From Puniceicoccales bacterium (GTDB lineage Bacteria > Verrucomicrobiota > Verrucomicrobiia > Opitutales > JAIRKQ01), in assembly GCA_031269795.1 (NCBI GenBank), contig JAISYR010000027.1:1-9526 (forward strand): 9,526 nt of DNA, written 5' to 3'. Under the pieces are notes generated by a model. That model saw only the letters and a list, made by a program, of their open reading frames with translations. It was not told the origin of the DNA and ran no database searches. A program made the position numbers and the translations under genes. This document shows positions 1-8,140 of this stretch, piece after piece. Positions within the stretch are counted from its first letter, which is position 1. Every line of letters starts with the position of its first letter.

Positions 1-148
1 ACCACATACGTTTAACTTCTCCATCCCACATTTTATTTATTTTTTGAGATGGGATTTTTATACATTTTTTATACATAAAGTTTTCCCGCCATCTTACTTT
101 CACATCCACCTATCCCCCGCAAGGCCTGAATTTATGGATCTTACATCC
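1..148. repeat. tRNA-3'-flanking conserved module, copy A (adjacent to tRNA-Asn; similarity reaches window edge)
   Basis: Aligns without gaps to 3953-4101 at a constant offset of 3952. Hand count: 95/135 identical over 3-137. Near-perfect blocks: 3-9 CACATAC, 33-59 (27/27 identical), 111-137 (25/27). Confidence 0.85.
55..76. repeat. Perfect tandem duplication of the 11-mer TTTTTATACAT (55-65, 66-76)
   Basis: Read directly from the sequence. The equivalent position in copy B (4007-4028) holds a different 11-mer, also duplicated. Confidence 0.9.
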
Positions 149-223
<75 letters not shown>

Positions 224-3156: not shown

Positions 3157-3225
3157 ATTTATGAAAAAGAAACCTGTGAATGGGGTTGCGGTCAGCCTTT
3201 TTGAGGTTTGTGGGTTCGGGTTCAT
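3127..3225 (-). other. Orphan 32-codon ORF with a strong SD (possible 5' stub of a deleted element gene)
   Basis: Minus strand reads AGGAGGTGAatcATG with the ATG at 3225. Translation is MNPNPQTSKRLTATPFTGFFFINLTENQMVPR*. It runs antisense across the hydrogenase stop at 3156. No homology recognised. Confidence 0.3.
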
Positions 3226-3363
3226 GATTCACCTCCTGAAACATTGAGTTTTTGAGCTTTGCAGAGCTTGACGGTGGCGGTAATTTCCTTCCGGATTTTT
3301 ATAAACTTCATCGGGTCTTCACCAAGAAACAATCGATGCTTCCTTCCGGGTGAGGTAGGTGCA
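3222..3363 (-). pseudogene. Third excisionase-family HTH module, split by a frameshift
   Basis: TYLTRKEA (frame of ORF 3319-3618) is followed by 7 nt (tcgattg, 3336-3330). FLGEDPMKFIKIRKEITATVKLCKAQKLNVSGGES* then continues in the frame of track ORF 3222-3422. The sister modules have exactly 2 codons (6 nt) between EA and the F/Y-L residues, so a 1-nt insertion explains the split. Confidence 0.45.
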
Positions 3364-3618
3364 GATGCCTTTCTGGTCCCATCCCGATTTCGGCTGGGAG
3401 AATTTTTCATCAAAACTTCCACCTTTGGTCTGGGGACGAACTAGCCCATCGAGGTCTTCCTTGGTATAAAGCACTTTCCCGCCAAGTTTATGAGAAGGAA
3501 TGTGTTTGTGGTTATCCCTCAACATAGCCGGCGATACGCGTAGATATTTCGCCGCTTCTTCCCGGGTGAGGTAGGTATGAGGGGTTGTCAATGATGATTG
3601 GGAGATATTTTCGTTCAT
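3319..3618 (-). CDS. Excisionase/AlpA-type helix-turn-helix protein (HTH_17-like), module 2
   Basis: TYLTREEAAKYLRVSPAMLRDNHKHIPSHKLGGKVLYTKEDLDGLV fits the excisionase-family HTH pattern. ATG 3618 is preceded by GGAGGGAGAGT (strong SD). The track start at GTG 3636 is less likely. The C-terminus ends in a truncated repeat of its own HTH start (TYLTRKEAS). Confidence 0.75.
   Translation of the reverse strand: MNENISQSSLTTPHTYLTREEAAKYLRVSPAMLRDNHKHIPSHKLGGKVLYTKEDLDGLVRPQTKGGSFDEKFSQPKSGWDQKGICTYLTRKEASIVSW
3338..3360. repeat. 23-bp direct repeat, copy 1 (gcttccttccgggtgaggtaggt)
   Basis: 21/23 identical to 3554-3576, which lies 216 bp away. It encodes the TYLTR(K/E)EA start of HTH modules 3 and 2. 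Confidence 0.85.
3554..3576. repeat. 23-bp direct repeat, copy 2 (gcttcttcccgggtgaggtaggt)
   Basis: Partner of 3338-3360. Confidence 0.85.
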
Positions 3619-3854
3619 ACTCTCCCTCCTATCCACTCTGCGTTAGTATGCGATAGGGATTCTATGAATTCGACGAGGTCTTGTTTTAGGAATCTTCTGT
3701 ATCTTCCTATTTTTACAGATTTTAGCCGGGGGTATTTATTTGTACTTAACCAAAACGACAGAATACTTGTTTTTATTCCAAGAAACCTTGCCGCTTCCTT
3801 GACATTTAACAGATTTTCGTTATAATCTTTATTTGTTTGCTGCGCATTAATACA
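3615..3854 (-). pseudogene. Excisionase/AlpA-type HTH ORF (module 1) with no canonical start codon; pseudogene or non-canonical initiation
   Basis: Hand translation stop-to-stop: CINAQQTNKDYNENLLNVKEAARFLGIKTSILSFWLSTNKYPRLKSVKIGRYRRFLKQDLVEFIESLSHTNAEWIGGRV*. This is a classic HTH_17 pattern. It has no in-frame ATG, GTG or TTG, so it is absent from the ORF track. Its TGA overlaps the module 2 ATG as ATGA (3618-3615). Confidence 0.6.
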
Positions 3855-3952: not shown

Positions 3953-4101
3953 ATCACATACATCTACTTTTCCTACTTCCCAACTTATTTATTTTTTGAG
4001 ATGGGATTTTTGTCCATATTTTGTCCATGGACTTTTCTTGATACTCTGTTTTGTGCTTCCATTATCCCCCGCTAGGCCTGAATTTGTGGGACTTTTACGG
4101 C
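3953..4101. repeat. tRNA-3'-flanking conserved module, copy B (adjacent to tRNA-Gln)
   Basis: Partner of 1-148. Blocks are 3955-3961, 3985-4011 and 4063-4089. Block-to-block spacing is identical to copy A (30 and 78 nt). Distance to the tRNA 3' end differs by 1 nt. Confidence 0.85.
4007..4028. repeat. Tandem 11-mers TTTTTGTCCAT / ATTTTGTCCAT
   Basis: Read directly from the sequence. Same position and phase as the TTTTTATACAT pair in copy A. Confidence 0.9.
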
Positions 4102-4175
4102 TGGCTGCCTGACCAGGGTTCGAACCTAGACAAACTGGACCAAAACCAGTTGTGCTACCATTACACCATCAGGCA
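4102..4175 (-). tRNA. tRNA-Gln (anticodon TTG)
   Basis: Reverse complement reads TGCCTGA-TG-GTGT-AATGGTA-GCAC-A-ACTGG-TTTTGGT-CCAGT-TTGT-CTAGG-TTCGAAC-CCTGG-TCAGGCA-G-CCA. Anticodon loop is TTTTGGT and CCA is encoded. Length 74 nt. Confidence 0.95.
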
Positions 4176-5503: not shown

Positions 5504-8140
5504 TCAAGGATTTTCCTGCGGTTTATTGTAGCCACCCATGGCAAACGCTGCCCGCCCACCTCCGGATCCTTTGTATTTGAGTGTGAGTTTTTTAACAATG
5601 TCATTAGCATTAAAGCCGGCCACGATTGCAGCTTCGGAGCAACAGGCAACAACGGAACACTTGCCCTGTGTACACGAAGTCAAAGTTACTACGCCCTCTT
5701 CAATCCTATGCAAAATATCCAATGCCAATGTTCGCAATTCATCGGGCTGTAGGTCGTCGACCTCTTTTTCGATGTGAATCATTTTTCCTTCCGACGGAGA
5801 GCTCGCCCGTACCACTTCCAAGGCCATGTTTTGCAGAAACATTTGCCGGGCCACTTTCGCAGATTTTTCCAGTTCCTTGCAGCGATTCACAAAAGAATCT
5901 ACTTTATCCAAGAGTTCCGAAGGTTGGCATGTGAAGAGCTTACACTGCTGCCCGACAATGGCACCATGCGTTCTAAAAAGATCAAGGGCTGCTTGTCCCG
6001 TAACTGCTTCTATGCGCCGAATGCCAGCAGCAATCGCAGAGGTAGAAATAATTTTGAAACATGCAACTTCGGAGGTATTGTTGACATGGCATCCACCACA
6101 TAGCTCTTGGGAAAAGTCTCCAAATTCGACCACGCGAACAATTTCACCATATTTTTCTCCAAAATTGGCAATGCAGCCCGGAGGAATGTGATCTTTGTGA
6201 GTTTCAAAAATTTTGGAATTTTCGCAGTCGAGGATTTTTTCTTCCACGAGCTTTTCAACCTTTTCCAATTCTTGTTCCGTCGGAACAGCAAGGACATTGA
6301 AATCAAAACGAAGGCGTCGGTCATCGACATGGGATCCCGCCTGCTTGATGTGATTTCCAAGAACCTGTCGCAGGGCAAAATGGAGAATGTGGGTGACGGA
6401 ATGATTCCTAGAAACATTGCGGCGAAATGATTTATCAACTGACAAAATTGCCCCTTGGTGCGGAGATAGGGAGTCAATTTGTTCCCGTATTTCATGGAGG
6501 TAGCATCCGTTCTTATCCTTCTGCACATCGACCACATGAAAAATATGCGGTCCAATTTGGACGGTTCCCCGGTCCCCAACTTGTCCTCCGCATTCCGCAT
6601 AGAATGGAGTCTTGTCGAAAATTAGAAATGTTTTTCCTGCCCTACCAATGACATCCAATGTGACTGCCTGAATATTTTCAATGCTACCAATGTCATAGCC
6701 GACGAATTCCGTCTGTGGCACGGCATTATTTGCCACTTCGATGACAGATTTTTTCTGGGCTGAACGGGCAAGCATACGCTGTTTTTCCATGGCACATTTG
6801 AAACCATCAATGTCGACGGAGATTCCTCGTTCCGCCGCCATTAACTGTGTCAAATCCAGGGGAAATCCATAGGTGTCGTACAGCAAAAACGCATAATTTC
6901 CTGCGATAACGTTTCCAGACTTTTCGCAGATTTCATGGAAAATTGTAATCCCCCGGTCGATGGTTTTTGAAAATGATTGTTCTTCATTTTTCAGTACCGT
7001 TTCGATGGTTGACTTTTGTTCGACTAGTTCACCGAAAATTGCCCCCATTTTGTCGATGACTACCGATGACAGTTTTGAAAAAAATCCATGGGGTAGTTTT
7101 AGTAACTTTCCAAACATTACAGCTCTCCGCAGAATCCTGCGTAGAACGTAGCCACGACCTTCATTGGATGGGAATATTCCATCGCCTATGGCAAATGTCA
7201 GGGTTCTAACATGGTCAGCAATCGCCCGGAACCAAAAGTCAACGCGTTCATCCGATGACATGTTTGTTCGGGAAGTGGAAATAGTTCCATGGTATTTTTG
7301 GCCGCACATTTTTTCAGTCGCAGTGAAAATGTCCGCAAACAGGTCGCTATCGTAGTTGGATGGCAATTGGGAAAAATCGGAAAAGTTTTTAGTTTTTGCC
7401 AAAATTCCCACGACGCGTTCAAACCCGATCCCCGTGTCGACATGTTTGTCCTTTAAATTTTCAAAGGTTCCGTTGACCGTGGCATTAAATTGAATAAAGA
7501 CAAGGTTCCATAGCTCTATGCACCAGGGACTACCAGCGTTGACTAGTCCACCGTTGCTATCGCCTTTCGGGGTCAGGTCCATGTGTATTTCGGAGCATGG
7601 TCCACAGGGACCCGTGTCTCCCATCATCCAAAAATTATCGGCCTTGGAACCTTCGACGATATGAACTTTGGGATCCATGTTTTCCTTCAAGAAAATTTCT
7701 TCCCAGACGGCATATGATTCTTGGTCAAAGGAAGAGGGTTCGTTGGGTTTTGGGGAATAGATAGTGGCATAGAGTCTATTTTTAGGAAAATTCCAGACCT
7801 TTGTCAGCAGTTCCCAGGCCATTTCGATGGCTTCTCTTTTAAAATAATCCCCGAATGACCAATTGCCAAGCATTTCAAAGAACGTGTGGTGGTAAGTATC
7901 GAATCCGACGTCGTCGAGGTCATTGTGTTTCCCTCCTGCCCGGATACACTTCTGTGTATCAGCCACCTGTGGGCAGGTCGGTTGGGTTTGTCCGAGGAAA
8001 AACGGAACAAACTGGTTCATGCCAGCATTCGTAAACAGTAGGTTCGGTGTGTCGGGCAAAAGGGATGCCGACTTTACTATTTTATGCCCATGGCGGGAAA
8101 AAAAATCTAGGAACGACTGTCTAACCTCATTGGAGTTCAT
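5504..8140 (-). CDS. alaS: Alanine--tRNA ligase
   Basis: 878 aa. Motifs: FTNAGMNQF, KCIRAGGKHNDLDDVG, FFEMLGNWSFGDYFK, editing-domain HSVTHILH and CGGCHV, and a C-terminal GSGGGRAAFAMGG (DHHA1). Confidence 0.97.
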   Translation of the reverse strand: MNSNEVRQSFLDFFSRHGHKIVKSASLLPDTPNLLFTNAGMNQFVPFFLGQTQPTCPQVADTQKCIRAGGKHNDLDDVGFDTYHHTFFEMLGNWSFGDYFKREAIEMAWELLTKVWNFPKNRLYATIYSPKPNEPSSFDQESYAVWEEIFLKENMDPKVHIVEGSKADNFWMMGDTGPCGPCSEIHMDLTPKGDSNGGLVNAGSPWCIELWNLVFIQFNATVNGTFENLKDKHVDTGIGFERVVGILAKTKNFSDFSQLPSNYDSDLFADIFTATEKMCGQKYHGTISTSRTNMSSDERVDFWFRAIADHVRTLTFAIGDGIFPSNEGRGYVLRRILRRAVMFGKLLKLPHGFFSKLSSVVIDKMGAIFGELVEQKSTIETVLKNEEQSFSKTIDRGITIFHEICEKSGNVIAGNYAFLLYDTYGFPLDLTQLMAAERGISVDIDGFKCAMEKQRMLARSAQKKSVIEVANNAVPQTEFVGYDIGSIENIQAVTLDVIGRAGKTFLIFDKTPFYAECGGQVGDRGTVQIGPHIFHVVDVQKDKNGCYLHEIREQIDSLSPHQGAILSVDKSFRRNVSRNHSVTHILHFALRQVLGNHIKQAGSHVDDRRLRFDFNVLAVPTEQELEKVEKLVEEKILDCENSKIFETHKDHIPPGCIANFGEKYGEIVRVVEFGDFSQELCGGCHVNNTSEVACFKIISTSAIAAGIRRIEAVTGQAALDLFRTHGAIVGQQCKLFTCQPSELLDKVDSFVNRCKELEKSAKVARQMFLQNMALEVVRASSPSEGKMIHIEKEVDDLQPDELRTLALDILHRIEEGVVTLTSCTQGKCSVVACCSEAAIVAGFNANDIVKKLTLKYKGSGGGRAAFAMGGYNKPQENP

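Follow-up and report, generated by a model that had tools for sequence, protein, structure and literature searches.

Paired 11-mers beside two tRNA genes

The window analysed here, a 9,526-nucleotide (nt) stretch of contig JAISYR010000027.1 from an uncultured Puniceicoccales bacterium of the termite-gut MAG (metagenome-assembled genome) type, contains two homologous modules, each of which begins directly 3' of a minus-strand tRNA gene (Table 1). Read in the direction of the tRNA, on the minus strand, both modules have the same layout: the tRNA, ~15 nt, a conserved box (box 2, AAATTCAGGCCTWGCGGGGGATA), ~35 nt, a head-to-tail pair of 11-mers located ~72 nt from the tRNA gene, and an A/T-rich block that adjoins the pair. 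The homology between the modules spans ~146 nt at a spacing of 3952-3953 nt, with 75% identity between 3-85 and 3955-4037 and 88% identity between 111-142 and 4063-4094. In module 2, three reading frames of the HTH_17 helix-turn-helix (HTH) family lie ~170 nt beyond the pair. A sequence-only reading of the window had placed such genes about 170 bp from the pairs in general, which is correct for module 2 but not for module 1, whose HTH genes lie past the left end of the window and were seen on another contig, L083.

The two units of module 1 are identical at 11 of 11 positions. Tandem Repeats Finder (TRF) reported both arrays with a period of 11 and 100% matches, as 2.0 copies at 55-76 (score 44) and 1.9 copies at 4008-4028 (score 42). 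A 27-nt block, TTATTTATTTTTTGAGATGGGATTTTT, occurs exactly twice in the window, at 33-59 and 3985-4011, and in none of 200 shuffles. A perfect 2 x 11 tandem arose in 0.2% of 2000 first-order Markov simulations of the window, and two tandems with at most one mismatch each arose in 0.3% of 2000. The paired 11-mers are confirmed as real and not a product of chance. Between the two loci, the same two positions differ in both units, giving ATA versus GTC on the plus strand, or TAT versus GAC in the orientation of the element (from the tRNA towards the HTH genes). The sequence-only reading had described these head-to-tail pairs, their matching differences and their identical 27-nt flank, and the sequence, the coordinates and the TRF period all agree with that description. 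An RNA reading of the module was rejected: the only Rfam matches are the two tRNAs, the predicted fold of either strand is no better than that of shuffles (z of -0.9 and -0.8), and a hairpin at module 1 is not conserved.

Table 1 Features of the two modules in the window
Feature	Position	Strand	Description
A/T-rich conserved block, module 1	33-54	-	TCCCATCTCAAAAAATAAATAA in element orientation; adjoins the pair; identical in both modules
Tandem pair, module 1	55-65 + 66-76	-	Plus strand reads TTTTTATACAT twice
Box 2, module 1	111-133	-	AAATTCAGGCCTTGCGGGGGATA in element orientation; between tRNA and pair
tRNA-Asn (GTT)	149-223	-	CCA encoded; 3' end faces module 1; integration target of the module 1 element
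Degenerate rest of second HTH-B domain	3222-3330	-	Frameshifted; sign of decay of the module 2 element
HTH-B	3319-3618	-	Shortened double-HTH_17 protein, 99 aa; matches Pfam HTH_17
HTH-A	3615-3812	-	Single HTH_17/excisionase-family frame; stop overlaps HTH-B start
Outward-facing promoter	3799-3826	+	Sigma70-type consensus TTGACA-16-TATAAT, 12/12; overlaps HTH-A 5' end
A/T-rich conserved block, module 2	3985-4006	-	Same as module 1 block
Tandem pair, module 2	4007-4017 + 4018-4028	-	Plus strand reads TTTTTGTCCAT and ATTTTGTCCAT
Box 2, module 2	4063-4085	-	Homologous to module 1 box 2
tRNA-Gln (TTG)	4102-4175	-	CCA encoded; integration target of the module 2 element remnant

Copies of the module and variation of the units

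Further copies of the module were obtained from contigs encoding relatives of HTH-B, which were found in protein searches, and not from pattern scans. An exact two-box scan of the module pattern gave no match in GTDB genomes and one match in JGI metagenomes, which lies by chance inside a GC-rich coding region; IMG/VR scans with a 23-mer, a degenerate pair pattern, the helicase and the integrase gave nothing useful, and a relaxed search of 1.45 Mb of Verrucomicrobiota loci gave no further module. The first 119 nt of contig L083 are 100% identical to window positions 119 to 1, so that L083 is the leftward continuation of module 1. It encodes HTH-A, a split HTH-B, a 351-aa primase-like protein (a weak Toprim match with a PRK07078 N-terminus), a 361-aa AAA_25 helicase with a C-terminal winged helix-turn-helix (wHTH) domain of the HTH_24 family, and two unknown proteins. 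In L086, tRNA-Ala(GGC) and the module are followed by three HTH genes and by genes for a primase-like protein and a helicase; L082 has the same gene set and starts inside HTH-A; L087 has tRNA-Phe, the module and HTH genes. In L084, tRNA-Arg(CCT) and the module are followed by HTH-A and a truncated HTH-B, to which the gene of a P4-type integrase is joined. Two or three paralogous HTH_17 genes stand in a row in these elements.

Five different tRNA genes (Asn, Gln, Arg-CCT, Phe and Ala-GGC) have the module directly on their 3' side (Table 2), with 14-72 nt (72, 51 and 14) between the tRNA end and the pair. In addition, L088 contains a decayed module beside a 3' fragment of tRNA-Ala(CGC) at 5718-5766, which runs from the anticodon stem to CCA and is followed by an integrase gene and phage-like genes, and host pseudopilin genes occupy the expected place of the HTH genes. 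This fragment and integrase show the usual tRNA-targeted integration. The extent of the fragment puts the inferred recombination core ~45 nt inside the tRNA, in the anticodon-loop region, and hence the pair ~60-140 bp from it, within the 50-150 bp range of arm-type sites. The genes that accompany the module (excisionase-family HTH_17 proteins, a primase-like protein, an AAA_25 helicase and, on related contigs, P4-type integrases with PF13356 arm-binding domains) are those of an integrative element. The module is therefore the tRNA-side end of a family of small integrative elements that targets at least five or six tRNA genes and whose members often decay in place. The sequence-only reading had put the repeats in the arm beside an attachment (att) site, and the five tRNA genes and the L088 fragment with its integrase support that placement; its interpretation is borne out in part, for this context but not for the proposed specificity (below). 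A second copy of the tRNA 3' ends (attR) was found in neither the window nor L083. As a separate observation on L088, its P4-type integrase lies at 5934-7172, the phage-like genes include a 408-aa terminase-like protein, and the older decayed module lies on the other side, a layout that indicates repeated integration at the same tRNA.

Table 2 The 11-mer units, in element orientation, and the recognition-helix region of HTH-A in five elements
Element	tRNA gene	Pair position	Unit 1	Unit 2	Triplet type	HTH-A recognition-helix region
Module 2 (window)	tRNA-Gln	4007-4028	ATGGACAAAAT	ATGGACAAAAA	GAC	GIKTSILSFWLSTNKYP
L084	tRNA-Arg	2171-2192	ATGGACAAAAT	ATGGACGAAAA	GAC	GIKTSTLSFWLSTNKYP
L087	tRNA-Phe	1157-1178	AAGGACAAAAT	ATGGACAAAAA	GAC	RVKTETLVTWLCRNKYS
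Module 1 (window)/L083	tRNA-Asn	44-65 (L083)	ATGTATAAAAA	ATGTATAAAAA	TAT	RVKTDTLATWLCRNKYP
L086	tRNA-Ala		GCGTATAAAAA	ATGTGTAAAAA	TAT	GIKTKTLITWLYINKYP

All five elements that keep HTH genes have exactly two units, though their flanks are hard to align, and the decayed copy on L088, which has no HTH genes, is the sole one-unit copy. This retention of the duplication argues for function over a one-off slippage. Within the unit, G3 and A8-A10 are invariant in 10 of 10 units, and the triplet at positions 4-6 comes in two types, GAC and TAT, with TGT once. Of 15 comparisons of triplet positions between paired units, 14 agree, and the units drift independently at positions 1, 2, 5, 7 and 11 (in L084, L086, L087 and module 2). 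In all three GAC-type elements, unit 1 ends in T and unit 2 in A at position 11; this common difference indicates that the units have not been homogenised since these elements diverged. Because GGAC has nevertheless been held in both units, selection on the units is suggested. The sequence-only reading had taken independent variation of the units, or loss of the duplication from most copies, as the marks of simple slippage in an AT-rich tract. The former is seen at the five drifting positions, one of which (position 5) belongs to the triplet, but not at G3 or A8-A10; the latter is not seen in this small sample, and neither is the freely varying copy number among homologous loci that neutral slippage would give. 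The pair was found nowhere else in the elements, and a search for a second pair with a position weight matrix (PWM) returned background only.

The units might have no sequence-specific reader at all, if they are phased A-tracts that bend the DNA intrinsically or products of neutral slippage whose concerted look comes from repeated contraction and expansion. The A-tract is indeed the constant part of the unit and A-tracts continue into the adjoining block, an 11-nt contraction occurred on L088, the module 1 units are identical, and no protein co-varies with the type. However, this explanation fits poorly with the two units in every gene-keeping element despite strong divergence of the flanks, with the invariant G3, with the GGAC in both units of three elements without homogenisation, and with a one-unit copy found only in a decayed locus lacking HTH genes. 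We consider it rather doubtful. Still less probable, and the least likely of the explanations we weighed, is that the units are part of a promoter, with TGGACA as the -35 box of the HTH operon, or of a small open reading frame (ORF) that starts at an ATG in unit 1 (MYKKCIK... or MDKIWTK...). TGGACA matches TTGACA at five of six positions, ATG-started ORFs of 22-30 aa begin in unit 1 of module 1, module 2 and L084, and a 72-aa ORF with an upstream start (208 on L086) runs through the L086 pair. The TAT type (TGTATA), however, matches at only three of six positions and no -10 box stands at a proper distance; the ORF length is variable, L087 has AAG in place of a start, and the differences are mostly non-synonymous. 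Scans found neither a terminator nor a promoter at the pair, and a small ORF through it is not conserved, so both candidates were dropped. A palindrome at module 2, GTCCATGGAC, was likewise rejected, since L084 has it but L087 and the TAT type do not.

The two types do not follow the relatedness of the flanks. Modules 1 and 2 have box 2 and an identical block in common and are of opposite types, and L086 and L087 have near-identical promoter regions and second and third HTH genes and are also of opposite types, the left part of L086 resembling module 1. The A/T-rich block is kept, with substitutions, in L084, L086 and L087; box 2 is confined to a sub-family, being degenerate in L084 and L088 and absent from L086 and L087.

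The sequence-only reading had explained the two types by a protein specificity that differs between the loci, and had suggested comparing the 11-mer variants with the neighbouring HTH proteins. Among the five elements, the type co-varies with none of the recognition helices of HTH-A, HTH-B or the third HTH protein, and no position in the HTH-A recognition-helix region sorts by type (Table 2). Moreover, the first domain of HTH-B is near-identical in module 2 and module 1/L083, and the 67/73-aa and third HTH proteins are near-identical in L087 and L086, even though the types in each pair of elements are opposite. In this small sample the specificity idea is therefore not supported, and no one protein is genetically linked to the site. 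Separately, we observed a hypervariable predicted recognition-helix region in HTH-A (K-T-x-T-L-x-x-W-L-x-x-N-K-Y-P), in contrast to the near-invariant remainder of the protein (P0020-P0026, L083, L086 and L087); this variation does not follow the 11-mer type.

The concerted change of the triplet is best explained by contraction and re-duplication rather than by altered specificity. A pair would contract to one unit and then be re-duplicated under selection for two units. The contraction is seen directly in the decayed L088 copy, which lacks 11 nt and has one unit, and the complete identity of the module 1 units is as expected shortly after a re-duplication.

HTH proteins, promoter and decay of the window element

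HTH-A of the window has no ATG, GTG or TTG start, and its first candidate start is a CTG at 3812-3810. It scores 33.4 bits against Pfam HTH_17, above the cutoff, and 25.2 bits against TIGR01764, below the cutoff of 28.8. Intact relatives of HTH-B (P0001-P0011) are 134-147 aa long and consist of two wHTH domains connected through ~25 aa of linker, so that the HTH-B of the window is truncated in its second domain. An intact relative reaches 43.9 bits against the TIGR01764 'excisionase family' model (cutoff 28.8) in two stretches. Its AlphaFold model has two beta-alpha-alpha-beta-beta-alpha domains, with predicted local distance difference test (pLDDT) values of 71-84, and a disordered linker. 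Each domain matches RdfS (8DGL), BldC-DNA complexes (6AMA, 6AMK) and Pukovnik Xis (4J2N) by fold, and the protein as a whole gives a weak match to TraN of pIP501, which is internally duplicated. Sequence searches of the PDB gave no matches.

The outward-facing promoter at the 5' end of HTH-A is ~175 nt from the pair and is directed across the 11-mers, the att site and, in antisense orientation, the tRNA. It is kept in four of five copies, at 12/12 in module 2, L084 (2404-2377) and L087 (1362-1335) and at 11/12 in L086 (433-406), and is lost in L083. Its arrangement recalls face-to-face switch promoters, or promoters that drive the integrase gene (int) only in the circular form.

A perfect decamer tandem, (GAACAGCAGC)n, was also observed close upstream of HTH-A or within its 5' end, at 1-118 in L082, 208-235 in L083 and, in degenerate form, at ~3825-3850 in the window. 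It has 11.8 copies in L082, whose contig starts inside the array, 2.8 in L083 and ~1 at the other loci. Because 10 is not divisible by 3, the number of copies determines the frame in which upstream ATGs stand relative to HTH-A, and the array may be a slipped-strand on/off switch. HTH-A also lacks an ATG, GTG or TTG start in L084 and L083.

The window holds no integrase, primase, helicase or second att repeat for the module 2 element, which is a decayed remnant. Consequently, the pair at 4007-4028 is probably a relic. No recovered element is intact with int and both ends, and the loci are a junkyard of decayed elements. The alanyl-tRNA synthetase (AlaS) of the window genome is 82% identical to that of its closest relative, the MAG JAISRG01 (contig L001), in which AlaS, RluA and RuvA are syntenic but the stretch with HemW, tRNA-Gln and the module is not. 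The synteny ends exactly at the 3' end of the AlaS gene (window position 5504), and the region to its left, with HemW, tRNA-Gln, the module, a Fe-hydrogenase-like gene, an acyltransferase gene and tRNA-Asn, is missing there. Sought by synteny through AlaS, the tRNA-Gln/module region was found in none of the relatives examined.

We also noticed four copies of GGAAACTTTT/AAAAGTTTCC, both direct and inverted, right after the AAA_25 helicase gene (3149-3308 in L083 and 3615-3754 in L082), a set that is likely the replication origin of the element. It bears on the idea that the 11-mers themselves are origin iterons, bound by the C-terminal winged-helix domain of the AAA_25 helicase or initiator and placed beside an A/T-rich unwinding block. 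Both a primase-like protein and an AAA_25 helicase that ends in an HTH_24 domain are indeed encoded by the element, and an A/T-rich block does adjoin the pair. Nevertheless, only two repeats are present where origins usually have at least three or four, and the four-copy set, which contains no 11-mer, is the better candidate; we regard an origin role of the pair as very unlikely.

Candidate readers of the pair and known systems

Our preferred reading, which we hold tentatively, is that the pair forms a conserved protein-binding array of two sites in the tRNA-proximal att arm, bound head-to-tail by wHTH proteins of the Xis/RdfS/BldC kind. The mobile element is arranged as tRNA, 14-72 nt, two 11-mers, A/T-rich block, ~170 nt with promoters, HTH-A and HTH-B, sometimes followed by a third HTH gene, and then the primase-like and AAA_25 helicase genes. 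The two head-to-tail units, one helical turn apart, would be occupied by two HTH_17 winged-helix domains, either as two monomers or as the linked domain pair within HTH-B. Once bound, these domains would bend the arm for excisive recombination, and they might also gate the strong outward promoter that reads across the att site. In each unit, G3 and the A-tract (positions 8-10) would be recognised, and the triplet at 4-6 that had appeared locus-specific would be an unread spacer. BldC recognises an AT-rich tract together with one C-G pair at a distance of 4 bp and ignores the intervening positions (PMC5859096); the units here, with a constant G, three positions that are free to vary and an A-tract, follow the same logic, which is why a wHTH site for two protomers or two domains is proposed. 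We infer the binding, the identity of the binder and the role in excision or regulation from the observed context, conservation and protein families.

Several points weigh against this reading. The sample consists of five independent intact-looking copies and one decayed copy, and the type co-varies with none of the recognition helices, as described above. The distance from the tRNA end to the pair varies between 14 and 72 nt. On the protein side, the mean pLDDT of the HTH-B relative model is 66, the E-values of the fold search are weak (0.02-0.5), and the structure model of HTH-A is unusable (two long helices, pLDDT of 70). In L084 and in a further contig, L085, int and the HTH genes share a strand, an arrangement at odds with the simplest attP model; unlike in these two, the L088 integrase adjoins the tRNA fragment on the opposite side. 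Finally, paired direct repeats in att arms are just as classically read by the arm-binding domain of an integrase.

This last point leads to the main rival, in which the units are arm-type sites: the N-terminal PF13356 domains of two protomers of a P4-type integrase would bind the repeats and bridge to the core in the tRNA during integration and excision, and the two types would go with two classes of N-domain. Integrases with PF13356 (E = 6.5e-16 in L084) and Phage_integrase domains are encoded on L084 and L088, and they have more than 100 relatives, many of them partial, in Puniceicoccales MAGs and the same metagenomes. The ~60-140 bp between the pair and the inferred core is typical of such sites, and IntS of ICEMlSymR7A, also of the P4 family, has five 10-bp arm-type sites in a 283-bp attP (PMC11963761). 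In addition, the left part of the module (the pair, the block and ~40 nt) is mosaic relative to the promoter and HTH part, L086 being like module 1 on the left and like L087 on the right, a pattern that would follow if the left part moved together with int and att as a cassette. On the other hand, no intact element was recovered in which the pair and an integrase stand together. The int-proximal arm of L088 has repeats of its own (ATCATAA..ATTCTAAA twice and TATTTAAG twice) and no convincing 11-mer; the PWM pair scan of this arm (5767-5955) gave 9.1, which is background level, against 23.5-33.6 for true pairs, although the arm may not be cognate. Moreover, an arm-type site is usually a specific 9-10-mer that recurs in both arms, not an A-tract unit with a switching triplet, and a tolerance of 14-72 nt from the tRNA end would be unusual for such a site. 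We judge integrase binding to be unlikely, but it is the explanation that competes most closely with binding by wHTH proteins.

A more far-reaching version would be that the types are exchangeable att-arm specificity cassettes that co-evolve with a partner, either an integrase N-domain or a wHTH domain, and that HTH-B is a 'pre-assembled head-to-tail dimer' for the two units; combined with the outward promoter and the decamer that shifts the frame, these would form a previously undescribed switch between excision and integration in Verrucomicrobiota elements. We give this version little credence. As it stands, the pair is an ordinary kind of feature, an RDF (recombination directionality factor) or arm-type repeat array of tRNA-integrating elements, in an unstudied host group, and it opens no new kind of biology. 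What it adds is a prolific family of integrative elements, not described before, that target tRNA genes in uncultured termite-gut Puniceicoccales; the tRNA-side end of these elements can now be defined. The paired 11-mers also offer a compact site for asking how tandem or covalently doubled Xis/BldC-type wHTH proteins read direct repeats, and for annotation, the pair and its block mark element ends and decayed remnants beside tRNA genes.

Among known systems, P4-like and PICI-like (phage-inducible chromosomal island) satellites and small genomic islands at tRNA genes resemble these elements in tRNA 3'-end integration, a P4-type integrase, AlpA/Xis-like HTH proteins, primase-like and helicase functions (encoded here by separate genes, in P4 by a single alpha protein) and iterons after the replication gene. 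In contrast to them, the host belongs to the Verrucomicrobiota, the HTH_17 genes are triplicated, many copies are decayed, and neither capsid-redirecting nor packaging genes were identified on the contigs that carry the module. The arm-type sites of lambda (P'1-P'3), L5 (P1/P2 and P4/P5) and IntS (P1-P5) are likewise paired direct repeats of ~10 bp with helical spacing, 50-150 bp from a core in a tRNA, and integrases with an N-terminal arm-binding domain occur in the same element family. They differ from our pair in that its central triplet switches between two types while the flanks are constant, and in that no matching repeat was found in the int-proximal arm of L088.

The arrays of recombination directionality factors (lambda Xis X1-X1.5-X2, L5/Pukovnik Xis X1-X4, RdfS of ICEMlSymR7A, and P2 Cox/186 Apl) likewise place direct repeats in an att arm at a spacing of one helical turn. 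Here, too, the direct repeats are about one turn apart in a tRNA-adjacent att arm, and the element encodes small excisionase-family wHTH proteins, with HTH-B domains that match RdfS and Pukovnik Xis by fold. In the known systems, the wHTH proteins (RdfS, lambda Xis, Pukovnik Xis and Apl) form head-to-tail oligomers on the DNA of att arms, each protomer taking up one turn, and have a dual role, in excision and in the regulation of promoters (PMC11963761, PMC12266134). Unlike those arrays, which have at least three sites or form filaments, our pair has only two units; two or three different HTH_17 proteins are encoded, one of them a covalent double domain; the candidate RDF genes adjoin the sites and not int; and across the five elements the site sequence does not track a cognate protein.

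A further likeness is to BldC on the Streptomyces whiI operator. BldC is a chromosomal developmental regulator and not a mobile-element protein, its repeat is 9 bp within the 22-bp site, and the identity to HTH-B domains is 23-27% with weak Foldseek E-values. Nonetheless, this MerR-like wHTH protein binds as a head-to-tail dimer to a 22-bp site with two direct repeats (PMC5859096), and its AATT-N4-C site parallels the invariant G, three variable positions and A-tract of each unit here, while the HTH-B domains superpose on BldC at ~2 Å over ~50 residues.

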